A stretch of 64,000 nucleotides of DNA, taken from NCBI GenBank assembly GCA_037137395.1, contig JBAXKK010000002.1, positions 31,881-95,880 on the forward strand, written 5' to 3'. Under the pieces are notes generated by a model. The model was not told the DNA's origin and made no database searches. It saw nothing but the letters and a program-made list of their open reading frames with translations. A program made the translations under genes and the position numbers. Origin of the DNA: Elusimicrobiota bacterium (GTDB lineage: Bacteria > Elusimicrobiota > Elusimicrobia > Elusimicrobiales > UBA9959). The stretch's first letter is position 1; every line of letters begins with the position of its first letter. Below are positions 3,736-58,935 of the stretch, piece by piece.

Positions 3736-4950
3736 TCAACCCTTAGGCAGAGGCGAGCGAACGGGGGAAGGTTCCTCACTTACGGCCATAGCCGCAGCGA
3801 AACCGGCGATGGCTAGAAGTGATGCGGCCATAAAAACTGATTTGTAGCCATAAGCGGCCCAAAGTATACCGCCCAACGCCGGCATCAGCATCGAGACCGC
3901 GTGATCCATGGTAACACCCATCGACAATGTCGGGGCTATATCAGATTTATGCACTGCCAGCTTATTAAGGTATGTGGTACGCGCTATGCGCGTGGCGAAC
4001 ATCAGGCTGTCCAGTATAAACAGCGCGTATAAAAACGGCCTGAAAGTTGAGAAGGCGAAACCGCCGCATATTATCAGCAGAATAAGCGCGTCCGCTATAA
4101 ACATTTTACGCTCGCCAATTTTGTCTACGAGCACGCCGAAGGCCTGCCGAAATACCACTCCCAGGAAATAGGCGGTCATAGACAGCGCCGCCATAATGGC
4201 CGGGTTCGCGCCATAAACCGTCACCAGCACCCACGGCGCGAAGGTTAGAAATATCTGTTTTCGCGCCCCAAATAGTATATTCAGCAGATAAAACCATCTG
4301 TATTTCCATCTAAAAACAAAACGTTTACCGCCGGCAACAGCGTCCTCTCCGTCTTCTTTCATTCGCGAAAAAAGAAAAGCCGAAACCACCGAGGCCAGCG
4401 CCGCCGCCAGGAAAGCCCACTGATAAAGCTTCGGGGCCGCCGTCTTCGCGAGCAGCCATACCAGCCCGGCGCCGGCTATGGCCGCGAAATTGGTTATGCC
4501 GCTTATCTGGCCCAGCCTGCGCCCGTGCCCTCCCTCCCTGGCGAAGCGCAGGCCCATCACGCTCTCCACAGTCATAAAAAGGTGACCGCCGGTGCTCCAC
4601 AGAAGCATCCACACCAGCATCAAATGGTACGACGGCGACAGGAAACCCAGCCCCGCCACGCCCACCGCGGTAAGCAAACTTGTTATAACCGCCCATTGCC
4701 GCACCGGCAAAGCCGCAAGCCCGCCGGTGACAAAAATAAGCATAAAGCCGGGGAACTCGCGCGGGAACTCCAGGAAGCCGCGCTGGCTGGCTGACATCCT
4801 GAAAGAGTCGTTTAGGTAGTTGTTGAAAGCTGAAGAGATGATGCCGGAATTTATTCCCAGAAAGAACACACCGGCAAGGAAAGCCTTTAGAGCGGGGTCG
4901 GCATTGTTCCACCGGCCATATATTTTAGAGGCGTACAATGTTAGAGGCAT
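3736..4950 (-). CDS. MFS transporter
   Basis: 404-aa ORF with about 12 hydrophobic segments and MFS-like loops. The annotated ATG and first 10 codons lie inside a 16-nt repeat array, so the start is uncertain. Confidence 0.65.
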   Translation of the reverse strand: MPLTLYASKIYGRWNNADPALKAFLAGVFFLGINSGIISSAFNNYLNDSFRMSASQRGFLEFPREFPGFMLIFVTGGLAALPVRQWAVITSLLTAVGVAGLGFLSPSYHLMLVWMLLWSTGGHLFMTVESVMGLRFAREGGHGRRLGQISGITNFAAIAGAGLVWLLAKTAAPKLYQWAFLAAALASVVSAFLFSRMKEDGEDAVAGGKRFVFRWKYRWFYLLNILFGARKQIFLTFAPWVLVTVYGANPAIMAALSMTAYFLGVVFRQAFGVLVDKIGERKMFIADALILLIICGGFAFSTFRPFLYALFILDSLMFATRIARTTYLNKLAVHKSDIAPTLSMGVTMDHAVSMLMPALGGILWAAYGYKSVFMAASLLAIAGFAAAMAVSEEPSPVRSPLPKG

Positions 4951-5050
4951 AGCAGTCTGGAGGTAAAGCAGTTTAGATGTAAAGCAATTTAGCCAAATTG
5001 CCGGCGGGCTGTGCCTCTAAGTTGCTAGACGGCTTTGCGTCTAAATTGCC
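4925..5050. repeat. 8/16-nt periodic word array (TTAGAGGC / GCCTCTAA family), two inverted arms
   Basis: ttagNNNN words at 4925, 4941, 4957, 4973 and 4989 (exact 16-nt phase). Inverted words gcctctaa at 5013 and gcgtctaa at 5037. Confidence 0.8.
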
Positions 5051-6488: not shown

Positions 6489-7853
6489 ATGTCTAAAAAA
6501 GTCCTTATCATCGGCTCAGGACCCGCCGGCTATCCGGCAGCTTTACGACTGAAGGAACTGGGGGCCGAACCTACAATCGTGGAATCCTGGGATTTTGGCG
6601 GCACCTGCCTAAATCGCGGCTGCATCCCTTCAAAATCACTGCTTGACGTCGGATACCGGGTCCAGTCCATGGATGTGCTGAAAGGATTGATGCCCAACGG
6701 CAAAACCCTTGATTTCAACCCTAATATGCTCTCCTGGGATAAAATAAAGGCCCGCCGCTCAGCCGCCGTGGAAAAACTCCGCACCTCGCTTGAAAAACTG
6801 TTTCAGATGAAAAAAATTGAGGTAATGCGCGGCAAAGCGGCGTTCACCGGACCGAATGAAGCGACCATCGCCACGACCGCGGGCCCTGTAGTCAAAAGTT
6901 TCGATTTCGCCATCATAGCTTCCGGCACAAGGCCGGGGTTTCCCCCGCCTTTTGACGCTTTCAGGGCGCAGCTGACCGATTCCGACCGCGTATTCGATCT
7001 GGCGAAGTTCCCCAAATCCATCACAATCGTCGGCGGCGGCGTCATCGGGCTTGAATTCGCCTGTTTCTTCAATTCGCTGGGCGCGGAGGTGTCGATCGTG
7101 GAGCTTATGCCCAACATCCTGGCCGGAGAGGATGACACTGTTGTGCGAACGCTTAAAACTTCTTTTGAGAAACGCGGCATAAAATTTTATCTCGGCAAAA
7201 AAACCGCCGGAGTGGAAATCGGCGCCGGAATGAAAACCCTTATATTGGACGACGGCTCAAAGATCGTATCGGAAGAAGTGCTGGTAGGCGCGGGACGATA
7301 CGCGGATCTTTCCCAATTTGGCCTTGAGAACCTAGGCCTGAAGTGGGACCGTAAAGGCGTAAAGGTCAACGCTGGCATGCGCACCGAGCTGGAAAATATC
7401 TATGCAGCCGGGGACATCAACGGCATTTCGCTGCTGGCTCATTCCGCCACCCGGCAGGGCGAAATAGCGGCTGAAAATATTATGGGCGCGAGCCGCGTAT
7501 TTGACGAGGGGATCGTTCCCAAATGCATTTACACCTGGCCCGAGGTGGCTACTGTAGGCATAAACAAAGCCCAGGCCGAAATAGGTGGGCTTGCCGTCAA
7601 AACTTCCCGGGCGTATTTTCTCGGCATAGGCAAGGCCGTGACGCACGATGAAACGGAAGGCTTCGCCCAGATAGTTTACGACGCGGCCGATGAGACTATC
7701 CTGGGCGCCCAGATAGTGGGCGGGACAGCCACCGAGCTGATACATCTGCTGGCAGTGGCCGTCAAGTTCAAGCTGAAGCGTCAGGACATGCGTGAGATCA
7801 TCTACGCTCACCCCACAATGGCTGAAGTTATACACGAGGCGCTCAATAAGTAG
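6489..7853 (+). CDS. lpdA: dihydrolipoyl dehydrogenase
   Basis: 454 aa. GSGPAGY FAD motif, redox-active GGTCLNRGCIPSK, second GGGVIGLE motif and a C-terminal dimerisation domain. Confidence 0.9.
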   Translation: MSKKVLIIGSGPAGYPAALRLKELGAEPTIVESWDFGGTCLNRGCIPSKSLLDVGYRVQSMDVLKGLMPNGKTLDFNPNMLSWDKIKARRSAAVEKLRTSLEKLFQMKKIEVMRGKAAFTGPNEATIATTAGPVVKSFDFAIIASGTRPGFPPPFDAFRAQLTDSDRVFDLAKFPKSITIVGGGVIGLEFACFFNSLGAEVSIVELMPNILAGEDDTVVRTLKTSFEKRGIKFYLGKKTAGVEIGAGMKTLILDDGSKIVSEEVLVGAGRYADLSQFGLENLGLKWDRKGVKVNAGMRTELENIYAAGDINGISLLAHSATRQGEIAAENIMGASRVFDEGIVPKCIYTWPEVATVGINKAQAEIGGLAVKTSRAYFLGIGKAVTHDETEGFAQIVYDAADETILGAQIVGGTATELIHLLAVAVKFKLKRQDMREIIYAHPTMAEVIHEALNK

Positions 7854-8044
7854 AGGCACAGCCATTTAGCAACTTAGATGCAAAGCAGGCTGGCAATTTA
7901 GACGCAAAGCAATTCAGTAATTTAGCTAGAGCGCTTTGCTTCTAGATGGCTTTACATCCAAACAGCTTTGCCTCTAAGTTGCTTTACATCCAAACTGCTT
8001 TGCCTCTAAATTGCTTTGCCGCTAGACCGCTTCGCATATCCATT
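7850..8044. repeat. 8/16-nt periodic word array, large imperfect palindrome
   Basis: Right arm is seven units in exact 16-nt phase starting 7933, 7949, 7965, 7981, 7997, 8013 and 8029 (gctttRc NtcNaaN NN). Left arm carries inverse ttagNNgc words on an 8-nt grid from 7850. Fills the whole lpd-xth gap. Confidence 0.85.
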
Positions 8045-8046
8045 TT

Positions 8047-8817
8047 ATGTCTATAAAAATTTTATCTTGGAACGTTAATGGCTACCGGTCAATCCTTAAT
8101 AAAGGGTTCAGGGAATTCCTTGCAACCTCAGGGACAGATATCATTGGTCTACAGGAGATAAAAGCCAGTCCGGAGCAGCTGAAGCCGGAAGACATGGCTT
8201 TCGCGGGCTATGAGTCGCGATGGAACCCCGCCGAACGGAAAGGTTACAGCGGCGTAGCGGCTTTTTTCAAAACCCAACCGCTCTCAGTTTCCTGCGGGAT
8301 GGGTATCGGGGAATACGACATCGAAGGCCGGGTCATATCGCTGGAGTATCCGGCCTTTCATCTCTTAAATGTTTATTTTCCTAACGGCGGACAGGGCCCA
8401 GAACGACTGGCCTATAAGCTTAATTTTTATGAGGCTTTCCTGAAACATATCGAGACCCTGCGCAAAACCGGCAAGGCTGTTATTTTCTGCGGAGATATCA
8501 ACACAGCTCACCGGGAAATAGATTTGGCCAGGCCTAAAGAAAACGCAAACAATTCCGGCTTCATGTCCATTGAACGGGCCTGGCTGGATAAAATTACCGC
8601 CATGGGCTGGGTGGACACCTTTCGCCTTTTTCATCCGGAACCTGACAATTACACCTGGTGGGACTATAAAACGCGCGCCCGCGAACGCAATGTAGGCTGG
8701 CGAATAGATTACTTTTTTATAAATAAAGAGAAGCAAGATCTCGTAAAAGAGGCATTCATACTCCCGCAGATCCAGGGCTCCGACCACTGCCCCGCAGGAT
8801 TAACTCTGGACCTGTGA
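8047..8817 (+). CDS. xth: exodeoxyribonuclease III
   Basis: 256 aa. ILSWNVNG, LQEIK, CGDINTAH and SDHCP motifs of the EEP/ExoIII family. Confidence 0.9.
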   Translation: MSIKILSWNVNGYRSILNKGFREFLATSGTDIIGLQEIKASPEQLKPEDMAFAGYESRWNPAERKGYSGVAAFFKTQPLSVSCGMGIGEYDIEGRVISLEYPAFHLLNVYFPNGGQGPERLAYKLNFYEAFLKHIETLRKTGKAVIFCGDINTAHREIDLARPKENANNSGFMSIERAWLDKITAMGWVDTFRLFHPEPDNYTWWDYKTRARERNVGWRIDYFFINKEKQDLVKEAFILPQIQGSDHCPAGLTLDL

Positions 8818-8831
8818 CCTGACAGAGATTT

Positions 8832-8878
8832 ATTGCGAGTGAATGGACCATCATATTTTCCAATTTGCCACTCGCAAT
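8832..8878. repeat. inverted repeat attgcgagtg / cactcgcaat (CGAGTG word family)
   Basis: Perfect 10-bp arms at 8832-8841 and 8869-8878. Followed by a second hairpin atgcttaa/ttaagcat. Confidence 0.7.
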
Positions 8879-8922
8879 TAAAAGTTGTATGCTTAAAACT
8901 TAAGCATGTTTGAGGGGGAAAA

Positions 8923-9333
8923 ATGAATAACTTAAAGTTGCCTATCGTACTACTGGCGTCGCTGCTGTTGGCAGCCTGCTCTGCGAATCTGCGTAAAAAG
9001 GTGCCGCCACTGGAGGATGTTCTTCACGCCGGGCCTTTAGCCAAAATAGTGGTTTATTCCGGAAATGTGGCCCTGGGGCAGAGCGGTCCGTCCGCAGACG
9101 GAATAACTCTCTCTATAGGCGGCACAGCCGCGCTCAGCGCGCAAGGCCGCGACGTCAATAACCGGCCCATAAAAATATCCCCTGCATGGACCGCCAGTAA
9201 GCCTGAGCTGATAGAAATAACTCCCCGCACCGGAGATATAGTTCTGGTGAAAGGGCTCAGGGAAGGCACCGCCGAGATCGTGGCTGAATACGACGGCGTA
9301 AAAAAAACCATTGAGTACGTTTTTATAAAATGA
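8923..9333 (+). CDS. lipoprotein with bacterial Ig-like (Big_2) domain
   Basis: 136 aa. Lipobox LLAAC at the signal peptide end. C-terminal Big_2-like region (LREGTAEIVAEYDGVKKTIEYVF). Confidence 0.55.
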   Translation: MNNLKLPIVLLASLLLAACSANLRKKVPPLEDVLHAGPLAKIVVYSGNVALGQSGPSADGITLSIGGTAALSAQGRDVNNRPIKISPAWTASKPELIEITPRTGDIVLVKGLREGTAEIVAEYDGVKKTIEYVFIK

Positions 9334-10613
9334 AATTCATCTGTGAATACGCGTTATCGCGCGGTTCAGGCCCTGTCGAAAGCGGACCCTGCTCCGTAGC
9401 GCTTTCCGAAGAGGTCCTGACGCTTTTACCAAGCGGCGCCCAGCCGCTTATCATTCCCTGGGAAGAAATCACGATGTTCTCGCTTGCGGATTTCAAGGCG
9501 GATCTTGCCCTGAGGCAGACCTCTTTGACAATAAGTTCTCTCGGATACAAATTCGAGGACTTCGCGCGTCACGCCGCCAGACTGCGCAACGAACGACTGC
9601 TGAAACTTAGCTTGGCGGAGGAACCATTAAGAACATCCATGATCGAAGCGGATTTGACATACAAATCTCCCGCCATGGAATTCACCTGCCGCTGCGAATT
9701 GCGCATATATGAAACCTCTCTCGTGGCTCTGCCCGAAACTGCCGACTTCCTTCGCCTCCCTTTCCGTTGTATCACAGAATTGAAAGAAGACGATTTCAGC
9801 GGTGAGCTAACCGGAGAAAGCGGGGAACACTGGTTTTTAAGCGGACTTGGCCGTAATTGTGATCATTTCAGGGATTCCTTACACGCGCAGATGGCGGACC
9901 TGGACCTATTCGCGCAGAAAGCACTGGGAGCAGCACTGCCTGGGGTTTCGCCTCTTGATTTGCGCGCCCTGTCCGCGCTCTCGCGCGAGGGACGCCTGAT
10001 CCCTCTCACGGAGCTGGATAAAATCAGACCCGGGGCCTGGGCCGCCATCGAAAAACGCATATGCTCAAACAAGGCCGACGCCGCTGAATATAATTTCCTT
10101 AAAAAGATTTCTGACACGGAGAAAACGGCCTTTGGCGTAAAAAAAGGCGTTATGGGGAAACTTAGCGGGGACCATTACATATTCCTGTTCTGCGCGAAAA
10201 ATCTGTCACCGGTTGTCATGGTCGAATCTTTTCTGCTGGAACCGAAGAGCGAACACGCCACCGATAAAACGGCCACCTACATCTACCGCCTCCCCAACGG
10301 CGGAAAAGACCCTTGGGCGGACTTCCTTTCATTCTTCAACCGCGCCATGACAGCGGTGAATTTCAGACGCATGCCGGTACTGTTATCCGATGCCCGCCTG
10401 GCCGACCCAAAGAACGCGATTTACGCCGGTGCGTTGGCGCGAGTGCCTGAACTGAAAACCCTGAGGCAGCTATATGTGGGGCGGGCTATACATACCGAAA
10501 CGGAACAGTGGGAAACGACCGTGTACGATCTTCTGCAATTCGCTGTCAAGAATCCGGCCCCGTGCGCCAGATGGAGAGCGAGTGAAGAAGAAGTTAAAGA
10601 GGAGGAACAATGA
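9330..10613 (+). CDS. hypothetical protein with internally duplicated N-terminal domain
   Basis: 427 aa. ATGA overlap with the upstream and downstream genes. Two similar ~75-aa segments (see findings). No family recognised. Confidence 0.5.
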   Translation: MKFICEYALSRGSGPVESGPCSVALSEEVLTLLPSGAQPLIIPWEEITMFSLADFKADLALRQTSLTISSLGYKFEDFARHAARLRNERLLKLSLAEEPLRTSMIEADLTYKSPAMEFTCRCELRIYETSLVALPETADFLRLPFRCITELKEDDFSGELTGESGEHWFLSGLGRNCDHFRDSLHAQMADLDLFAQKALGAALPGVSPLDLRALSALSREGRLIPLTELDKIRPGAWAAIEKRICSNKADAAEYNFLKKISDTEKTAFGVKKGVMGKLSGDHYIFLFCAKNLSPVVMVESFLLEPKSEHATDKTATYIYRLPNGGKDPWADFLSFFNRAMTAVNFRRMPVLLSDARLADPKNAIYAGALARVPELKTLRQLYVGRAIHTETEQWETTVYDLLQFAVKNPAPCARWRASEEEVKEEEQ

Positions 10614-11612: not shown

Positions 11613-11843
11613 TTAACCTGAATCCTGCAGTTGAAGATAGATTTTCCGCCACACAGCTTCGTCGGACCCGCCGGATTGTATTGGCGGGTATTGGGAAATC
11701 CGGGAACAGAATTATTCTGCAGGATTCCCCGCACAGCGGGCTGAAGGCCCAGCGCTATGCGCGCCCGGCCCGAAGAGGTGTATACCTCCCGAATGGGCGC
11801 CCGCTACGCGGGCGGAAAGTTGCAACTGCAACTTTCAGGTTAA
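11613..11843 (+). mobile_element. MITE-like non-coding element, copy A (231 bp)
   Basis: 10-bp terminal inverted repeats ttaacctgaa (11613-11622) and ttcaggttaa (11834-11843). Aligns end to end with the reverse complement of 36732..36917. Confidence 0.75.
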
Positions 11844-11851
11844 TACCGATT

Positions 11852-20406: not shown

Positions 20407-20428
20407 GACAGCGCTAAAGCGCTGTCCT

Positions 20429-20586
20429 GCCATATGCCATAAGCTATAGGCCATACGCGGAAAGTACAATTATACGCCTTAAGCTTTATCGTATTATGAA
20501 GCGCATCATTGAAAGTCCTTTTACTACTTAAATTTTAAGTTTCTGCGTATGGCCTATAGCGTATAGCTTATGGCAATAGCAATAAC
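20429..20586. repeat. heptamer array GCCNTAN with inverted arm (long imperfect palindrome)
   Basis: gccatat gccataa gctatag gccatac gcggaaa at 20429-20463. Reverse-complement arm ctgcgtatggcctatagcgtatagcttatggcaatagc at 20543-20580. Confidence 0.85.
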
Positions 20587-23395: not shown

Positions 23396-23412
23396 GTAAG
23401 GGCGCCGCGCCC

Positions 23413-23515
23413 GCCATTAGCCATATGCTCTAGGCCATACGCAGAAACACTGTTAGTTGCCATAAGCATTCACTTCTAAACTTTTCTGCAAATGGCAAAT
23501 GGCCAACGGCTTACA
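23413..23515. repeat. heptamer array GCCNTAN with inverted arm
   Basis: gccatta gccatat gctctag gccatac gcagaaa at 23413-23447. Inverted arm tgcaaatggcaaatggccaacggcttac at 23488-23515. Confidence 0.8.
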
Positions 23516-23528
23516 GCAACAACGTAAT

Positions 23529-31131: not shown

Positions 31132-31203
31132 TGCCGCGAGTTGGGATCGAACCAACGACACCTGGTTTTTCAGACCAGTGCTCTACCACTGAGCTACCGC
31201 GGC
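31132..31203 (-). tRNA. tRNA-Phe (anticodon GAA), CCA not encoded
   Basis: Reverse complement GCCGCGG TA GCTC AGTGGTA GAGC A CTGGT CTGAAAA ACCAG GTGTC GTTGG TTCGATC CCAAC TCGCGGC A folds as a canonical cloverleaf. Confidence 0.92.
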
Positions 31204-33642: not shown

Positions 33643-33650
33643 GAAAAACC

Positions 33651-33732
33651 GCCATAGGCCTTAAGCCATACGCCATAAGCAGAGCGGCTGCCAAGGTATA
33701 ATATGGCCTAAAGCATACGGCATATGGCAATA
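33651..33732. repeat. heptamer array GCCNTAN with inverted arm
   Basis: gccatag gccttaa gccatac gccataa gcagagc at 33651-33685. Inverted arm (rc: gccatat gccgtat gctttag gccatat) at 33695-33732. Confidence 0.85.
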
Positions 33733-35283: not shown

Positions 35284-36735
35284 ATGCCCATAACGAAATC
35301 TACCGGAGCGGTAATCCTAAAAAATTTCCTTGAAATACCCTATGACGAATTAGAGGCGATAAATCTTGAAGCGGCGGAAGCGGCTGAAACACTCCCCCCC
35401 GCGGAACTTGAAAAAAAATACCGCTCGTATCTGCACAAAGAAAAACGCATCAAAGCGGTAACGCTTTGTTTCTCAGATATAGAAGGGCGCTTCCATATGC
35501 TCGACTATGATAAGCAGTATTTTTTAAAAGCGGATGACAACCTGACCTTTGACGGCTCATCCATCCGCGGTTTTTCCGCGCAAAAGGAGTCCGATCTCAG
35601 ACTCGGGATCGACTGGAGCAGCATCTTCTGGCTCCCCTCCGATGTGTTCGGTCCGGGCAAGGTAATTCTTTTCGCCACGGTCCTAAACCGGGACAAGACC
35701 CCCTACGAATCCGATTTCCGTGCGCATCTGGCCGAACTCGCAAGGGAAATGAAAAAAACGCGAGGCATCACCGCGAATGTCGCCGCCGAAGTGGAAGGCT
35801 TCCTAGTAAACGGGCTCAATGCCGAACAAATCTACGATAAAGTGAAGGGGTTTGACCTCATTTCTACCGGCGGCTATTTTCACTCCCTGCCTCTGGACCG
35901 CCTAAAAATATTCATAGACACCGCCGCCGAGTCACAAAGGGCTATGGGATTCAAGAACGAAAAGGACCATCCGGAAGTGGCGCCCTCACAGTTCGAACTC
36001 AACTTTTCTTACGCTAATGCTGTACGAGCCTGTGACATGATCCAGCTGTATAAACTCGTCTGCCGCCAGGTGGCCGCGAACATGGGAATGACCGCGACAT
36101 TTCTTCCAAAGCCGGTTTCCGGAGTGAATGGCAGCGGCATGCATCTTAATCTCTCTTTTTTTAAGGGCGGACAGAATATTTTCTACGATAAGAAAGGGGA
36201 GGACGGCCTGTCAGCGATAGCCTGGAACGCTATTTCACGGATACTTAATAACGCTCAGGAACTTTCGCTTATCTTAAATTCAAGCGTGAACGCCTACCGG
36301 CGCCTGGATCCGCGCTTTGAAGCTCCGAACCAGATCAAGGTCTCCTCCGTTGACCGCGGAGCCATGATACGCATCCCTGCCGGGAACGAAACATCCGCCC
36401 GCATAGAGATCCGCTCAGTCGGTCCGGACGCAAATCCGTACCTCGCTTTATACGCGCTCCTTCGCACAGTCCTGGAAGGATCGCCTCTCACGAAAGATAA
36501 AAGCAAGCGCGACCGCGTACGGTGCCTTCCGGGGAATATCTATGACGCCATACGAATATTCCGCGCAAGCGAATTTATAAAGGCGGTTATGGGCGCGGCG
36601 TCGCACGAAAAGTACGCGTCGCACAAGCAGGCTGCCGCGGATCGCAGTCCGAAAGAGTTGGGAATGATAGTAAAGTCGGCGGAAGTCCTATTCCACCACG
36701 AAGTGACAAATCAAATGCTCTGGCACAAGTTTTAA
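35284..36735 (+). CDS. glnA: glutamine synthetase family protein
   Basis: ORF 35263..36735. Start set at ATG MPITKS. GS beta-grasp N-domain (FSDIEGRFHMLDY) and catalytic domain (KPVSGVNGSGMHLNLS, NAYRRL, IRIP...RIEIRS). Confidence 0.85.
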   Translation: MPITKSTGAVILKNFLEIPYDELEAINLEAAEAAETLPPAELEKKYRSYLHKEKRIKAVTLCFSDIEGRFHMLDYDKQYFLKADDNLTFDGSSIRGFSAQKESDLRLGIDWSSIFWLPSDVFGPGKVILFATVLNRDKTPYESDFRAHLAELAREMKKTRGITANVAAEVEGFLVNGLNAEQIYDKVKGFDLISTGGYFHSLPLDRLKIFIDTAAESQRAMGFKNEKDHPEVAPSQFELNFSYANAVRACDMIQLYKLVCRQVAANMGMTATFLPKPVSGVNGSGMHLNLSFFKGGQNIFYDKKGEDGLSAIAWNAISRILNNAQELSLILNSSVNAYRRLDPRFEAPNQIKVSSVDRGAMIRIPAGNETSARIEIRSVGPDANPYLALYALLRTVLEGSPLTKDKSKRDRVRCLPGNIYDAIRIFRASEFIKAVMGAASHEKYASHKQAAADRSPKELGMIVKSAEVLFHHEVTNQMLWHKF

Positions 36736-36917
36736 CCTGAAAACTTTAGTTGAAGTTTTCCGCCCGCATAGCGGGCGCCCTTCGGGAGGAATACACCCGT
36801 CGGGCCTGTCGCGCATAGCGCTTGGCCCTCCGCCCGCTTCGCGGTGAATCCTGCAGAATAATCCTGTTCCCCTGATTTCTCTATGGGAATCATTCTGAAC
36901 TGCAGGATTCGGGTTAA
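36732..36917 (-). mobile_element. MITE-like non-coding element, copy B (186 bp, inverted relative to copy A)
   Basis: Ends ttaacctgaa (36732-36741) and ttcgggttaa (36908-36917). The glnA stop TAA (36733-36735) lies inside the terminal TTAA. Confidence 0.75.
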
Positions 36918-36936
36918 AAAACGCAAACAGTGAAAC

Positions 36937-37008
36937 GTAAAGAGTAAAGAGTTATAAGACATGAACTTTTTGCTCTTTACGATTTACGATTCCCGCTTTA
37001 CGCTCTTT
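36937..37008. repeat. heptamer array GTAAAGA / TCTTTAC with inverted arm
   Basis: gtaaaga gtaaaga gttataa at 36937-36957. tctttac gatttac gattccc gctttac gctcttt at 36974-37008. The right arm encodes the C-terminal tail (KSVKRES) of the Mo subunit. Confidence 0.8.
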
Positions 37009-39305
37009 ATCGCCGCAAGAACTTTCTCGGGAGTGAACGGCGAAGAAAACAGCCGCGCGCCCACGGCGTCACGCACTGCGTTGGCCACCGCGGGCAGCGG
37101 GCCGTTGATGCCTATCTCAGAAACAGACTTGGCTCCAAAAGGCCCGTTGGGCTCAAACGTAGGAATAAGGATGGTTTTAATAGGCGGCATATCGGCGGTG
37201 TTAAATATTTTATAGCGCCGGAAGCTGGCGTTAAGCGGCGTGCCATTCGAGGAGAACTCCATCTCTTCCGAGAGGGTGTGGCCTATCCCGTTCAGCACGG
37301 CCCCGTCGTTCTGGCCTTCAGCCAGTTCCGGATTTATGGCGGTGCCGCAGTCTACGCAGGAAATATAATTAAGTATCGTTATCTTGCCTGTCCCCGTATC
37401 AACTTCCACTTCCACGAAATTGGCCGCGAAAGGCGGCGGAGAAGTGTGGGCGTAATGGGAGGCTGAAGCCACGATCTGGTGCTGGTCATAATAATAAAGC
37501 GAGGTATTGGCCACCTCGGAAAGGCCGCAGGCCGCTCCGTCTTTCGCTAAAACCTTTCCACCCTCAAGGCGCAGGTCATCAGGCTTCCTGTCAAGGATCT
37601 TCGCCGCCACCGCTATAATCATTTCGCGGACCTTTTCCGCCGTCTTCTTTACGGCGTTGCCGGAAATGAACGTAGTTGATGAGGCGTAAGCCCCCACATC
37701 GAAGGGCGTGAGATCAGTGTCGGATGAATAAACTATGACATCTTCGGCTTTTACTCCGAGGACCTCGGCCGCTATCTGGGCGAGGATGGTGTCGGACCCG
37801 GTGCCAAGATCCGCGGCGCCTACCATCAGGTTGAAGGAACCGTCCTCGTTCATCTTAAGCGTGGCGCTGGCCATGTCTACCTCGGGGATGCCGGAGCCCT
37901 GCATCATACAGGCCATACCGAGCCCGCGCCTCAATTGACCGCTCTGGTTTTTATATTTTTTCTTTTTCTCGTGCCACTTTATAGCCTTAAGCCCCGCCTC
38001 TATGCCGTCATAAAGACCGATAGACGTGATGACCTGCTCAACGCCCTCACGGCCCTCCCCCATGGCTTTAAACACCGGCGAGCCCTCGCCCAGGCGTATG
38101 TAGTTTTTTTTGCGGAACTCCACGGGGTCCATGCCGATCTTTTCCGCCATTATATCCATCTGCGACTCCCAAGCGAAGAAACCCTGTGTAGCGCCGTAGC
38201 CGCGGTAAGCGCCGGAAACCGGCAGATTGGTATAAACGCTCTTGCCTATGAATTTTATATTGTTCGCCACCCTGTACATCGGCAGGGTGTGGGATCCCGA
38301 GCACATCATAACTGTCAGCGCGTGCGAGCCATAGGCGCCGGTATTGAGCGTTATGTCCATCTCGGCGTCTGTTATCGTACCGTCTTTACGAACCCCTGTC
38401 TTTAGCCGCACGATGGCGGGATGTCGCGTGCGCGATGAAATAAAAGTTTCCCTGCGCGTGTATTCAATTTTAACAGGCTTCCCGGTTTTAAGCGTAAGGG
38501 CGGCCGTAATATCTTCAAGCAGAACTTCCTGCTTGGAGCCGAAGCCGCCGCCGATGCGCGGCTTTATAACCCGGATCTTCTTGACGGGCATCCTGAGCGC
38601 CTGGGCCACGATGCGCCGGACGTGAAACGGGACCTGCGTTGAAGTCCTGATGACCAGGCGGCCAAAATGGTCGAAACTTGTTATAACCGTATGCGGCTCG
38701 ATGGCGCAATGCTGGAGATAGGGCATTTTATAGGTATGCTCTATCACAAAATCGGCGTCCTTAAACCAATCTCCGTTCCTGACTTCAAAATCAAATTTGG
38801 CGGCGATATTATGCTTCGCGTCCGGAATATTTTTCGCGTCTTCCTCGTCATGAATTACGGGCGCGCCGTCCTTAACGGCCTCAAAAACATCAAAGACGGC
38901 CGGCAGGATCTCGTAGTCAACCTTTATCAGCTTCAGCGCCGCGTCCGCGGCCTCGGGAGTCTCGGCGGCCACGGCGGCCACCCGGTCGCCAACGAAGCGC
39001 ACCTTGCTGTCAAGCACATATGAATCGTAAGGTGAAGGCTCAGGATACCCCTGACCGGCCGTAGTGTGCGGCACCCGGGGAACGTTCTTATAGGTAAGAA
39101 CGGCTTTCACCCCAGGGACCTTTTCGGCCTCCCTGGTGTCTATTTTTTTGATCCGGGCATGGGCGTAATGGCTCCACAGGATACGGCCGTAAAGCATCCC
39201 GTTGATGTCCACATCGTCGGTGAAGACCGGTTCGCCGCAGGCCAGGCCCAAAGCGTCCATCTTCAGCACGCGCTTGTTAACTACTTTCAAATTTTCAGTT
39301 TCCAT
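36984..39305 (-). CDS. xanthine dehydrogenase family molybdopterin-binding large subunit (set 2)
   Basis: 773 aa. Ald_Xan_dh a/b hammerhead plus Mo-binding domains (GGGFGSK, GEPP-like FGAKSVSE). Confidence 0.88.
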   Translation of the reverse strand: METENLKVVNKRVLKMDALGLACGEPVFTDDVDINGMLYGRILWSHYAHARIKKIDTREAEKVPGVKAVLTYKNVPRVPHTTAGQGYPEPSPYDSYVLDSKVRFVGDRVAAVAAETPEAADAALKLIKVDYEILPAVFDVFEAVKDGAPVIHDEEDAKNIPDAKHNIAAKFDFEVRNGDWFKDADFVIEHTYKMPYLQHCAIEPHTVITSFDHFGRLVIRTSTQVPFHVRRIVAQALRMPVKKIRVIKPRIGGGFGSKQEVLLEDITAALTLKTGKPVKIEYTRRETFISSRTRHPAIVRLKTGVRKDGTITDAEMDITLNTGAYGSHALTVMMCSGSHTLPMYRVANNIKFIGKSVYTNLPVSGAYRGYGATQGFFAWESQMDIMAEKIGMDPVEFRKKNYIRLGEGSPVFKAMGEGREGVEQVITSIGLYDGIEAGLKAIKWHEKKKKYKNQSGQLRRGLGMACMMQGSGIPEVDMASATLKMNEDGSFNLMVGAADLGTGSDTILAQIAAEVLGVKAEDVIVYSSDTDLTPFDVGAYASSTTFISGNAVKKTAEKVREMIIAVAAKILDRKPDDLRLEGGKVLAKDGAACGLSEVANTSLYYYDQHQIVASASHYAHTSPPPFAANFVEVEVDTGTGKITILNYISCVDCGTAINPELAEGQNDGAVLNGIGHTLSEEMEFSSNGTPLNASFRRYKIFNTADMPPIKTILIPTFEPNGPFGAKSVSEIGINGPLPAVANAVRDAVGARLFSSPFTPEKVLAAIKSVKRES

Positions 39306-39323: not shown

Positions 39324-39392
39324 CAGGTTACAGGGGTCAGGTTTCAGGCTACAGATAAAAAATTCCGCCTGCTACCTGCCACCTGTTACCTG
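39324..39392. repeat. heptamer array CAGGNNN / NNNCCTG inverted arms
   Basis: caggtta caggggt caggttt caggcta cagataa at 39324-39358. Inverted heptamers end in cctg at 39371, 39378, 39385 and 39392. Confidence 0.85.
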
Positions 39393-41628: not shown

Positions 41629-41733
41629 ATTCAAGATTCAAGATTCAAGAGATGCCAGCAATTTTTAATCCGCACTTTTAAACTTCAAATCCTTAGTCCC
41701 AAATCTTCAATCTGGAATCTTGAATCTTCAATC
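41629..41733. repeat. heptamer array ATTCAAG x3 with inverted ATCTTNA x5 arm
   Basis: attcaag at 41629, 41636 and 41643. atcttca atctgga atcttga atcttca atcctat at 41703-41737. Confidence 0.85.
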
Positions 41734-47352: not shown

Positions 47353-48600
47353 CTACAGAAAAATCCAGTATATTATCCCATTTATCAGGGTCAGCGGCAC
47401 TCCGGCCTTCGCGAATTCTGTAAAGGTCAGGGTCTCCCCGGCTTTTTTCTCTGCGTTCTGGATAATGATGACATTGCTGGCCGCGCCCAGGATGAACATA
47501 TTACCCGCGATAGTTGAGCCGGCGGCCAAAGCCATAAGCTGCGGGGTCCCGGCTCCGGCGTGCGCAATCGCCGGCATATAAAGAGCGACCAGCGGCACAT
47601 TGGAAATCAGCTGGCTCACGACCACGCTCACGGAGAGTATCATAGGCGTGGAGGCGATTTCAAGGCCGGAGCTCGCTATTGCTTCCTGAAAGAATCCGAT
47701 GTCCCAAACGCTTTTCATCAGGATGAACATAGCCGCGAAAAAAACAAGCGTGCTCCAGTCCGTCTTTTTCAGCAGTTCCGTCCTTCGCGAACTAAAAACG
47801 AGCGGCGGCAGCATGGCCGCCAACGCGATATAGGTGAGTTTTAAATTCGCAGCGGGAACTAAATAAACAGCCAGAATCTTAACGGCAACCATGACACCCA
47901 TAACGATAAGCGAGACCTTGGAAAGAAAACTGAGGTAATGATCCTTTATAGGCTCCTGGGAATGCACGAGCGCACCTTTAGAAAAATGCCCGCGGTACAT
48001 AATTCTCAGCAGTAAAAAAGCGAAAACCAGATTCAGAACCGTGGGAAGGAAAAGATATCTTAAGAAGGTAATAAAAGGCGCCGCCACGCCGCCGTTCACG
48101 GCCACCAGAAGATTCTGCGGATTGCCGATAGGGCTCATTACGCTGCCCGTGGTAATGCCGAACGCCAGAGTCAGCAACAGAAGCTTCGGGGACATTTTGT
48201 GCTTTTTGGCCAACAGCAGGACCACTGGCGTACCGATAATAGCCAATGTATCGTTCATCAGAGCGGCGGAAGCGAAGGCTGAGCCAAAAAGAACAAAGAA
48301 CACCAGCTGACCAAGCGACTTGGCCCGCTTGAAGAAGGAATACTCCAAATGTGCCAGATAACCACTCATTTCAAGCGCGGCCCCGACCACGAACATGCCG
48401 AACAGGAAAAAGATAACATCAAAATCTATCGCTCGCAGAGCCGCCGCCGGACCGATATCTCCCGATAGCAGCACCGCGGCCGCGCCCGCGAACATCACCT
48501 GCCAGATCTCAACCCGGAAACGCCCCACCCGACGGACGGCAATCAGCACAAAAACAATAATGAGGACGATTATGGGAAACATAATGTAGCGCGATAGCAC
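47353..48600 (-). CDS. ArsB/NhaD/SLC13-superfamily anion permease
   Basis: 415 aa, polytopic. CitMHS/ArsB-like repeats (GNPQNLLV, SNVPL). Confidence 0.65.
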   Translation of the reverse strand: MLSRYIMFPIIVLIIVFVLIAVRRVGRFRVEIWQVMFAGAAAVLLSGDIGPAAALRAIDFDVIFFLFGMFVVGAALEMSGYLAHLEYSFFKRAKSLGQLVFFVLFGSAFASAALMNDTLAIIGTPVVLLLAKKHKMSPKLLLLTLAFGITTGSVMSPIGNPQNLLVAVNGGVAAPFITFLRYLFLPTVLNLVFAFLLLRIMYRGHFSKGALVHSQEPIKDHYLSFLSKVSLIVMGVMVAVKILAVYLVPAANLKLTYIALAAMLPPLVFSSRRTELLKKTDWSTLVFFAAMFILMKSVWDIGFFQEAIASSGLEIASTPMILSVSVVVSQLISNVPLVALYMPAIAHAGAGTPQLMALAAGSTIAGNMFILGAASNVIIIQNAEKKAGETLTFTEFAKAGVPLTLINGIIYWIFL

Positions 48601-48657
48601 GACAGCAAGATGGCACGTCAGATAGCAACGAGATTTTAAGTCAGGCGGATTTACTAC

Positions 48658-49347
48658 CTACCAGTTGCGACCAAGTAGTTGTTGGTACTCCTCTGGCGTG
48701 TCAAAATCGCGGATAACACCTGCATCTGCCACCACGAGATCCAGAACTTTCACCGACTGGTGATGCGTGACCCAATGCAGGCCCTTGTCATTGGGGCCTT
48801 CAAAACAAAGCTGAAAATATTTTCGCGGAATAATTATTGGATGCCCGCGTTTGAAGGAAAGAGGATTAACGCCAGCTGGAGGCACCACGCTATCTTGCTG
48901 TCGTACTGTCTTGCTGTCGTACTGTCCTGCTGTCGCGCTTTCCGGGGCCTCGTCACGCCGGCACTTGGGAATAACAAGGAAATCTCTGCTGGATCGCCAA
49001 AAATCGGCTATCAGTTTATAGGTTTCCGGCTTTATTAGGGGCTGGTCAACCAGACAGATCATCACGGCTTCGGACCGGTAACTGACAAGTTTAAGGGCCG
49101 CCCTGACCGAAGCTATCTGCCCCAATTCCGGAGTCTCATTGAAAGCAACTCTTATCTCACCGGGGTTCCAGGCGGCAAGAACTTCCGCGCGGCTGGCGCC
49201 GAGAACAACAATAGTCTCCGTTACGCCCGCGGCATTGACTCCCGCGCAGACCGATTCCAGAAAATTACGCCCGTCATACTCAAGCAGCGCTTTTGTCCGC
49301 CCCATTCTGGAGGAATCCCCACCGGCCAGCACTAAAGCGCTTATCAT
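48658..49347 (-). CDS. mocA: MobA-like NTP transferase (molybdenum cofactor cytidylyltransferase MocA-like) with ~35-aa repeat-derived insertion
   Basis: 229 aa. LVLAGGDSSRMG..K signature, DQP motif and KRGHPIII. The insert lies between IPKCR and KRGHP. Confidence 0.75.
   Translation of the reverse strand: MISALVLAGGDSSRMGRTKALLEYDGRNFLESVCAGVNAAGVTETIVVLGASRAEVLAAWNPGEIRVAFNETPELGQIASVRAALKLVSYRSEAVMICLVDQPLIKPETYKLIADFWRSSRDFLVIPKCRRDEAPESATAGQYDSKTVRQQDSVVPPAGVNPLSFKRGHPIIIPRKYFQLCFEGPNDKGLHWVTHHQSVKVLDLVVADAGVIRDFDTPEEYQQLLGRNW
48893..48940. repeat. 16-nt tandem repeat inside the mocA-like CDS (tcttgctgtcgtactg x2 plus a degenerate third unit)
   Basis: Units at 48893-48908 and 48909-48924 are identical. 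The third unit at 48925-48940 matches 12/16. 3 x 16 = 48 nt keeps the reading frame. Confidence 0.85.
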
Positions 49348-51769: not shown

Positions 51770-51800
51770 TGCTAAAAATTATAGAATCTATTGTAATCCG

Positions 51801-51892
51801 GGCTGTTTGATGAGCATAGCTCTTGATACGGCACCGGCATAGCCTGGGCCGTTTGATGAGCATAGCTCTTGATACGGCACCGGCATAGCCTG
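51801..51892 (+). promoter_or_regulatory. perfect-phase 46-bp tandem duplication abutting the RBS of the DPD/YgfK-like gene
   Basis: Copy 1 at 51801-51846 and copy 2 at 51847-51892 differ at 2 positions. Each contains an imperfect palindrome gccgtttgatgagc ata gctcttgatacggc. Confidence 0.6.
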
Positions 51893-51901
51893 GAGAAAAA
51901 T

Positions 51902-58833: not shown

Positions 58834-58935
58834 AAAAAGTGGTTAGTGACTAGTGGCGAGTGTCAGTATTTGCAATCCAAATGTGAAGATAGCTGTCATG
58901 AAGAATACCCGAACCGACCGCTGTCCACTATAACG
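58834..58935. repeat. heptamer array NNNTAGT family (aaaaagt ggttagt gactagt ggcgagt gtcagta) with weak inverted arm
   Basis: Five units in exact phase at 58834-58868. Partial inverse words at 58916-58935. Confidence 0.75.

Follow-up and report, generated by a model that had tools for sequence, protein, structure and literature searches.

Probable origin of the palindrome between lpd and xth of an Elusimicrobiota bacterium from a dispersed foldback repeat family built of 8/16-nucleotide words

The nearest described architecture to the element reported here is that of the inverted heptamer arrays of Xanthomonas (PMC4692102). The GGGAATC arrays of this genus form 70-75 convergent opposite-strand pairs per genome that are capable of stem-loop formation, lie almost all in intergenic regions and nearer to the upstream open reading frame (ORF), vary between close relatives, and are of unexplained origin (Rehm et al. 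2015, PMC4692102). Beggiatoaceae possess TAACTGA repeats that end 1 nucleotide (nt) ahead of start codons, and the cyanobacterial STRR heptamers are a related direct-repeat case (PMC4679880). REP, BIME and REPIN sequences are high-copy intergenic palindromes, often located in operons just after stop codons and mobilised by RAYT transposases (PMC3733652, PMC3116915). Correia of Neisseria and Chunjie of Geobacter are non-coding transposable elements of the miniature inverted-repeat type (MITEs), 100-250 nt long, dispersed and variable in length, with inverted termini; Chunjie sits within an operon without breaking it, and the hairpins of Correia serve as substrates of RNase III and can contain promoters (PMC10969869). 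Foldback and Galileo transposons possess long inverted arms of tandem sub-repeats with hierarchical periods, variable arm length and little unique middle (PMC3573991, PMC4079207). The element compared here with these systems is a palindrome at positions 7851-8044 of a 64,000-nt stretch of Elusimicrobiota bacterium DNA (assembly GCA_037137395.1, contig JBAXKK010000002.1, positions 31,881 to 95,880 of the forward strand; hereafter the window, whose numbering is used throughout), located between the genes lpd and xth. Our preferred reading, to which a probability of about 0.6 is given, is that it represents one copy of a non-autonomous foldback repeat family that is MITE- or REP-like in behaviour; it is probably selfish or near-neutral, and not a dedicated control region.

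The window has a GC content of 52% and carries housekeeping genes, and the nearest named homologues of its Xth protein are without exception labelled Elusimicrobia. The upstream operon gene lpd (6489-7853, + strand) encodes dihydrolipoyl dehydrogenase, with Pfam Pyr_redox_2 and Pyr_redox_dim domains and a match to TIGR01350 at 425 bits (cutoff, 408.8), and the downstream operon gene xth (8047-8817, + strand) encodes exodeoxyribonuclease III by its match to TIGR00633; the names given to both genes in the first-pass annotation hold because of these profile matches. The gap between them (7854-8046, 193 nt) is crossed by a single unbroken 8-nt grid running from 7850 to 8049. As annotated earlier, the TAG stop codon of lpd (7851-7853, + strand) forms bases 2-4 of the first word, GTAGAGGC, and the last repeat unit ends at 8044, 2 nt ahead of the xth ATG; no Shine-Dalgarno sequence is present between the element and this ATG.

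The left (5', purine-rich) arm (7850-7929, + strand) consists of ten 8-nt words, which read GTAGAGGC, ACAGCCAT, TTAGCAAC, TTAGATGC, AAAGCAGG, CTGGCAAT, TTAGACGC, AAAGCAAT, TCAGTAAT and TTAGCTAG on the grid from 7850, with inverse units TTAGAnGCAAAGCAnn at 7847, 7871 and 7895. Its dominant period is 24 nt, that is, one 16-nt unit plus one extra 8-nt word, and its lag-24 identity of 0.64 was reached by 0 of 20,000 shuffles; the inverse words do lie on the 8-nt grid that had been proposed, but the simple 8-nt period proposed with them gives way to this super-period. The right (3', pyrimidine-rich) arm (7933-8044, + strand) is composed of seven 16-nt units GCTTTGCnTCTAAnTT with the consensus GCTTTGC-N-TCTAA-NTT, which start at 7933, 7949, 7965, 7981, 7997, 8013 and 8029 and depart from the consensus at 3, 5, 1, 4, 0, 4 and 5 positions, respectively, the last unit being degenerate. 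A-type units (GCTTTGCCTCTAAgTT) alternate with B-type units (GCTTTACATCCAAACn) to give a 32-nt super-repeat. Tandem Repeats Finder (TRF) reports period 16 with 5.8 copies and period 32 with 2.7 copies and 88% matches for this arm. Lag-16 identity is 0.66, a value reached in none of 20,000 shuffles, and lag-32 identity is 0.79, so that the self-similarity check suggested for the earlier claim of seven units in exact 16-nt phase came out in its favour, with every unit at the start claimed. The centre or apex of the foldback (7911-7940, ..TTCAGTAATTTAGCTAGAGCGCTTTGC..) is a non-periodic core; several registers give 76-91% complementarity between the two arms. The description of the whole gap as one palindrome of 8/16-nt words is thus upheld by the grid, the inverse words and the complementarity of the arms. 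When the 16-mer was searched for with up to 3 mismatches, 10 occurrences were found in the window against 1.3 expected.

The synteny of lpd and xth is kept in more than 20 related contigs, and the order DUF748-lpd-xth was found in every related contig recovered (comparison contigs are given below by their L numbers). In 11 related contigs, the lpd stop and the xth start are separated by -3, 1, 1, 1, 1, 6, 12, 12, 12, 23 and 26 nt, and long gaps (81-198 nt) occur only where a palindrome is present, namely in the window (193 nt), L121/L123 (198 nt), L139 (180 nt), L124 (158 nt), L137 (about 110 nt), L118 (94 nt), L126 (83 nt) and L206 (81 nt). Since lpd and xth of relatives lie only -3 to 26 nt apart, the comparison identifies the palindrome as an insertion into an originally tight, translationally coupled operon junction. 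Its full occupancy of the gap, with no promoter or spacer left, follows from insertion into a junction of few bases, and xth is an operon gene that never had a promoter region of its own, as the spacing in relatives implies. The earlier remark that no conventional promoter or spacer remains between the two genes is correct as to the abutment of both codons on the element, but loses its significance given that spacing. In a neighbour-joining tree of Lpd and Xth, one filled clade comprises the window, L121, L124 and L118, and L126 is a filled tip among empty tips; because filled junctions stand in separate parts of the tree, at least two independent fillings of the lpd-xth junction are indicated. 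Other word families, as 7- or 8-nt palindromes, occupy the junction in L118, L126, L137, L139 and L206, and other lineages have filled the same junction independently with different palindromes. The most regular example of such an array is L139:129-311, with 12 + 8 words of the TAGAAGGT/TGGAGGAT type; it extends from the TAG stop of lpd to a point 8 nt ahead of the xth start codon ATG, has a predicted folding energy of -90 kcal/mol and is followed by a T6 run.

The element is not confined to the lpd-xth gap, but represents a single member of a family that is dispersed and apparently mobile. Copies with the same words and the same foldback layout were found at 4925-5050 of the window and at L121:3513-3670, L118:2847-2998, L124:2737-2890 and L124:19977-20147, and in two other Elusimicrobia metagenome-assembled genomes (MAGs), GWA2_51_34 (L009:4837-4975) and UBA9634 (L084:7398-7528). 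The 16-nt unit is made of two 8-nt words, GCTTTGCn and TCTAAnTT; a position matrix of 76 units gave GCTTTGC-N-TCTAA-ann, in which position 8 is nearly free and the last four positions hold low information. Most copies have the inverted termini (G/C/T)TAGAnGCAAAGC ... GCTTTGCnTCTA, and the family thus carries the terminal inverted repeats of a MITE. RAYT-associated REP and REPIN sequences bear a conserved GTAG (or CGTC) tag at one end; here, six of ten copies (window-1, L121_1, L118_2, L124_2, L009 and L084) start with GTAGA, the others with TTAG, CTAG or ATAG, and CTAC occurs only once at a right end. This GTAG is one form of the TTAG/CTAG word of the array interior, and it mostly overlaps or directly abuts a stop codon in the GTAGA copies. 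A scan of a genome collection with the 18-mer GCTTTGCNTCTAANTTGC listed at least 116 loci, almost all of them chance singletons in coding DNA, and only L009 and L084 were real family copies among the matches listed. Viral contigs scanned with a 21-mer gave 3 chance matches in coding regions and no element.

The second copy in the window (4925-5050) fills the divergent MFS/DUF748 gap, with four inverse units in its left half and two direct units in its right half. The MFS ORF (3736-4950, - strand) has its sole in-frame ATG, together with its first ~10 codons (MPLTLYASKI), within the two outer words of this copy (4925-4950), and this start within the words is also conserved in L118 and L121. Among the orthologues of this gap, that of L121 has two additional units, that of L118 a central deletion, and that of L124 the left arm only. 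The lpd-xth copy is most similar to a non-orthologous one, L124:19977-20147 in reverse orientation, with 86% identity over 140 nt including the centre, whereas identity to its own orthologues is 77% with gaps counted; the non-periodic centre is almost identical in L118:2935-2990 and L124:20022-20060 (reverse orientation). L121_2 and L124_2, 88% identical over 134 nt, show the same non-orthologous pattern. Non-orthologous similarity exceeds orthologous similarity, and therefore sequence moves between loci, by transposition or gene conversion; the comparison of copies thus points firmly to their having been exchanged or copied between loci in either orientation.

Three orthologous lpd-xth copies share 83-87% identity at aligned bases versus 80-81% at 4-fold degenerate sites of lpd and xth, and differ by indels of 16, 17, 21 and 23 nt; point substitutions in the element have accumulated at about the neutral rate, and the arrays change by indels of 16-23 nt. 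Orthologous gaps hold the 8/16 family in one strain and a 7-nt family (GCCATAn) in another at 23396-23525 (versus L124) and at 779-882 (versus L118 and L124), and the swapped segment begins exactly at the stop codon, or a few codons ahead of it, and ends at the next ATG. In the window, the site downstream of the HhH-GPD gene (779-882) carries a composite remnant in which 7-nt GCCATnn words precede degenerate words of the 8/16 type (..TCTAGCTAAATTGC), and a complete element of the 8/16 family is present there in the sister strains L118 and L124. The stop codon of HhH-GPD in L118 and L124 comes from the GTAG of the element, and the end of the window protein differs (..GVL* versus ..GVNERHKP*); in L009, the right terminus provides the stop codon of the convergent gene. 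Other word families have thus replaced the 8/16 element at orthologous gaps. The words of the 8/16 class do form a distinct family, as the first-pass annotation had it, but its separation from the 7-nt class as a phenomenon does not stand, because both have the same foldback architecture, occupy the same kinds of gap and replace one another.

These data bear on the alternative that the array is a purely local simple-sequence expansion, in which slippage on a short seed produced the units and local template switching the palindromy, with no movement between loci. Unit number does differ between orthologues by the 16-23-nt indels, a 32-nt block was apparently duplicated recently, 7- and 8-nt arrays dominate in many unrelated contigs, and the literature ascribes the excess of heptamers to slippage (PMC4679880 citing Mrazek 2007; PMC4692102). 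Local expansion is nevertheless regarded as unlikely: non-orthologous copies in both orientations share 130-140 nt at 86-88%, together with the non-periodic centre and the order of variant units, and are closer to each other than orthologues are; the same words recur in distant Elusimicrobia MAGs; and whole elements swap at one gap.

A chimera or a collapse of reads within the repeat was also considered. The only other contig with an identical Xth protein, L117, is independent of the window and was retrieved from Logan; it breaks inside the array, so that the independent support for the array covers 7981 onward, with the unit count of 7851-7980 outside it. The broken contig nevertheless agrees at 100% with the window over 7981-9343. 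The orthologous element is identical in independent ENA and JGI assemblies (L121 = L122/L123), the L118 version is identical in three assemblies, and family copies occur in several independent metagenomes, all of which make an assembly artefact very improbable.

The folding energy was predicted to be -67.8 kcal/mol for the + strand RNA (z -4.2), -75.6 kcal/mol for the - strand RNA (z -3.8) and -37.6 kcal/mol for the DNA (z -3.6), and no shuffled sequence was as stable as the lpd-xth region in any of the three, which settles the folding check proposed with the first-pass annotation in favour of a foldback. The predicted hairpin is imperfect, with ~60 pairs and an AT-rich, mismatched stem. Its main part pairs ~7851-7925 with ~7933-8024, and the last 22-38 nt of the element are predicted to be unpaired or paired with the 3' end of lpd, where GAGGCG in the last codons (7836-7841) would form an outer helix with CGCTTC of the last unit. 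At all filled junctions, the outermost predicted pair starts 3-15 nt ahead of the stop codon and closes within a stretch that reaches from 14 nt upstream to 8 nt past the first ATG base. In the lpd-xth mRNA, the hairpin of ~60 pairs would loop the insert out and bring the stop codon and the ATG to ~15-40 nt apart at its base. Ribosomes finishing lpd would melt this base, which reaches into the last lpd codons, and translation of xth would stay coupled. The efficiency of translational coupling is set by the stop-start distance and by ribosomal unfolding of RNA structure (PMC12548453), and opening of the hairpin base fits both models of coupling, RNA unfolding and short-range re-initiation (PMC12548453). 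Insertions of foldback shape may be tolerated at operon junctions because such a hairpin would keep xth translation coupled; effects on mRNA stability or on the lpd:xth ratio would be a by-product and not the reason for the element.

A selected cis-acting RNA element of the lpd-xth operon, acting as a stabiliser, a processing site for RNase III or RNase E, or an attenuator of the lpd:xth ratio, might be expected from a long stable hairpin that begins at the stop codon. Similar palindromes follow directly after stops in rubrerythrin|peroxiredoxin, between subunits of xanthine-dehydrogenase-like enzymes and in gcvT|gcvH|gcvP, and REP, Correia and ERIC elements are known for such effects (PMC10969869). 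This explanation is considered improbable, as the palindrome is absent in most relatives, where the genes lie 1-26 nt apart, evolves at about the neutral rate with large indels, and is replaced by unrelated words in L118. It has no sense-strand folding advantage, and neither a terminator signature nor an Rfam family was found: a scan of 7600-8300 gave no Rho-independent terminator, which would have a short GC-rich stem with a U tract behind it, and a search of the whole window against Rfam 15 at gathering thresholds, together with a local E-value scan, gave no relevant family. The element itself matched only sub-threshold miRNA-precursor models (E 0.05-5), matches explained by hairpin shape in general. 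The idea that folding of the sense-strand RNA is selected was rejected as well, because the sense strand folds better in just 3 of 13 elements, and there is no sign of selection on transcript structure as opposed to palindromy of the DNA.

Two further candidate features of the element were set aside. A sigma-70-like pair, TTTACA-18-TAAATT (7983-8012, + strand), is made by the 32-nt super-repeat; as an xth promoter it is unsupported, with 1 match against 0.7 +/- 0.9 expected, and it is not conserved in L121 or L124. A hidden small ORF was likewise rejected, as only spurious ORFs of 20-36 aa were detected.

Foldback arrays of 7- or 8-nt words are present in at least ten gaps of the window, at or near 779, 4925, 7851, 20428, 23396, 33650, 36915, 39324, 41629 and 58837. 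Those at 20428-20575, 23396-23498, 33650-33729, 36915-37009, 39324-39392, 41629-41733 and 58837-58934 are intergenic 7-nt arrays, and the words of the 7-nt arrays in the window are GCCATAn, GTAAAGn, TTTCAGG, ATTCAAG and GTGGnnA. Arrays completely fill the operon junctions rubrerythrin|peroxiredoxin, Fer2_2|large subunit and Fer2_2|FAD_binding_5, the latter two in genes of xanthine dehydrogenase-like enzymes. L137 has its own 7-nt family at two loci, and L206 carries 7-nt palindromes in gcvT|gcvH and gcvH|gcvP that begin at the stop codon and leave the Shine-Dalgarno sequence of the next gene intact. A census by a hairpin-plus-periodicity detector on Elusimicrobia loci and on distant Xth-bearing contigs gave 6.6 periodic palindromes per 100 kb in the former and an equal density in the latter, which served as controls, and periods 7 and 8 dominate in both. 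The expected lineage-specific architecture was rejected on this ground; since the distant contigs are equal in density with words of their own, the architecture is widespread, and each lineage has word families of its own. In 25 of 34 elements, a purine/G-rich 5' arm is followed by a pyrimidine/C-rich 3' arm, a chirality which for a palindrome is independent of strand, and a purine-first arm occurs in 10 of 11 Elusimicrobia word families, the sole exception being GCCATAn, which is neutral or C-first. Distant contigs with their own 7-/8-nt words include L168/L169/L172:9886-10062, L186:8918-8994, L193:7331-7392, L196:1780-3052 and L200:34-157, and Xth of the distant contigs that carry the foldback architecture is 54-60% identical. 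The loop of the heptamer palindrome in L168 holds ~four tandem copies of a 27-nt GC-hairpin unit.

Ribbon-helix-helix proteins read words of 7-8 bp in direct and inverted orientation, as in the 8-bp met boxes of MetJ, the 7-bp heptads of the omega repressor, and ParG. By analogy with such operators, the strict 8-nt grid across 200 nt, the conserved core of 5-6 positions with 1-2 free positions in each word, and the words in both orientations could suggest that the words are bound in series by an oligomerising protein of this type and that the array serves as a nucleoid, partition or regulatory site. At least ten unrelated word families coexist, however, each of which would need its own protein; the arrays lie inside operons and over stop and start codons, turn over rapidly and are absent in relatives, and no candidate gene is located nearby. 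We consider a binding-site array quite unlikely.

Under the preferred reading of a foldback repeat family, a copy landed in the tight lpd-xth junction in an ancestor of the window lineage. Spread may have occurred by copy-and-paste of hairpin-forming DNA through a structure-recognising single-strand transposase of the IS200/RAYT type or through another enzyme, or alternatively by gene conversion between copies. The arrays would grow and shrink by slipped-strand mispairing on the 8-nt register, and the similarity of the arms would be maintained by hairpin-templated repair. Several points weigh against this reading. Neither a target-site duplication nor a clean pair of empty and filled sites was found, which leaves transposition itself a candidate mechanism; direct-repeat target duplications were lacking at the lpd-xth, HhH-GPD and lplA-upstream junctions on comparison with empty or differently filled orthologous sites, these comparisons being between strains that are not very close, in which an old duplication could have decayed. 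Gene conversion between existing copies could yield the same similarity between loci. A Pfam scan of 35 window ORFs revealed no transposase or RAYT, and no transposase was present in the annotated loci L118-L122 and L206-L207. The purine-first chirality of 10 of the 11 families is unexplained by a foldback-repeat model, and several unrelated word families of the same 7/8-nt architecture coexist in one genome, which is hard to reconcile with one sequence-specific transposase. Furthermore, the antisense strand is outdone by the sense RNA in just 3 of 13 elements as regards folding, and because the sense strand is not the better folded one, the role proposed above for the RNA is drawn from geometry only.

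It is possible, although we hold it as a tentative idea, that the element belongs to an unrecognised, widespread class of bacterial 'periodic foldback elements', with arms of 7-/8-nt words, a strand-independent purine-first chirality and many families per genome, which would preferentially colonise the space directly after stop codons, including tight operon junctions. Their propagation or generation would depend on a structure- or template-driven mechanism that takes no account of the words and is undescribed in bacteria. Candidates are a single-strand transposase that is specific for hairpins and acts on periodic foldbacks of any kind, and templated snap-back or slip synthesis at breaks.

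Other features were noted in the window. Inverted 8/16-nt word arrays (TCTTGCTGTCGTACTG x 2.7) at 48588-48621 and 48889-48942 flank the 3' part of a MobA-like NTP-transferase ORF (48658-49347, - strand), and the right array (48889-48942) lies in frame within its coding region (..ATAGQYDSKTVRQQDS..). Another structured dispersed repeat, GC-rich and of ~150 nt, occurs at 11695-11846 and 36729-36879 of the window and at L124:13568-13755; the window copies are 84% identical, inverted and without an Rfam match, and the region 11617-11836 is missing from L118. A 46-nt unit is present twice at 51800-51893 (97% identity; TRF score, 181), spanning the gap 51770-51868 and the start of an 826-aa ORF at 51869. 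The segment 12771-18148 (5.4 kb, ~four ORFs, carbamoyltransferase-like and TPR-like by L118 homology) is present in the window and L118 and not in L124. The only Rfam match above the gathering threshold in the window was a tRNA gene (31132-31203, - strand; 71.6 bits).

If the foldback-repeat reading is correct, about one in five intergenic gaps in this Elusimicrobia lineage holds foldback repeats of fast turnover, from which neighbouring genes take stop codons and, in one instance, a start codon. These repeats would matter for gene calling, assembly and binning of MAGs, because coding signals are supplied by them and contigs break in the arrays. The lpd-xth junction would offer a natural series of empty, 8/16-nt, other 8-nt and 7-nt states for testing how far coupling tolerates intercistronic structure, and the bacterial excess of 7-nt-type tandem repeats and of inverted pairs would be tied to copying from locus to locus, which points past simple slippage as the mechanism. 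Independent colonisation of one junction several times over, the coexistence and mutual replacement of word families, and the chirality are the observations most worth following.

In comparison with the known systems, the element resembles the Xanthomonas arrays in its tandem short words of a length that is not a multiple of three, in its convergent arrays on opposite strands, and in the strong variability of length and sequence between close relatives. It differs from the GGGAATC heptamers in its unit of 8/16 nt with super-periods of 24 and 32 nt, in having no runs of three or more G and no quadruplex potential, and in its host phylum, Elusimicrobia; moreover, here whole elements including the non-periodic centre are common to several loci, and many word families occur per genome. 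Like REP and REPIN sequences, it is strain-variable, shows no target duplication and has a predicted mRNA hairpin, but whereas REP is a single palindrome of 20-40 nt, the unit here is a non-palindromic 16-mer and palindromy exists only between arms of 50-110 nt, and, unlike in REP/REPIN systems, no RAYT was seen among the 35 window ORFs scanned. With MITEs it shares inverted termini, dispersal and variable length; unlike Correia and Chunjie, it has no visible target duplication and no known parent insertion sequence, and its arms are periodic throughout. Foldback and Galileo are eukaryotic, of kilobase scale and served by P-like transposases, and the likeness to them is architectural only. The MIRUs of Mycobacterium tuberculosis, reportedly described by Supply et al. 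in 1997, are said to fill intercistronic gaps of operons and to overlap the flanking stop and start codons; unlike the present element, they are direct repeats of 40-100 bp with small in-frame ORFs and are not palindromic. What is new is therefore the 8/16-nt-unit family in Elusimicrobia, and the kind to which it belongs, short tandem words in inverted arrays with the behaviour of dispersed repeats, has already been noticed and is poorly understood.

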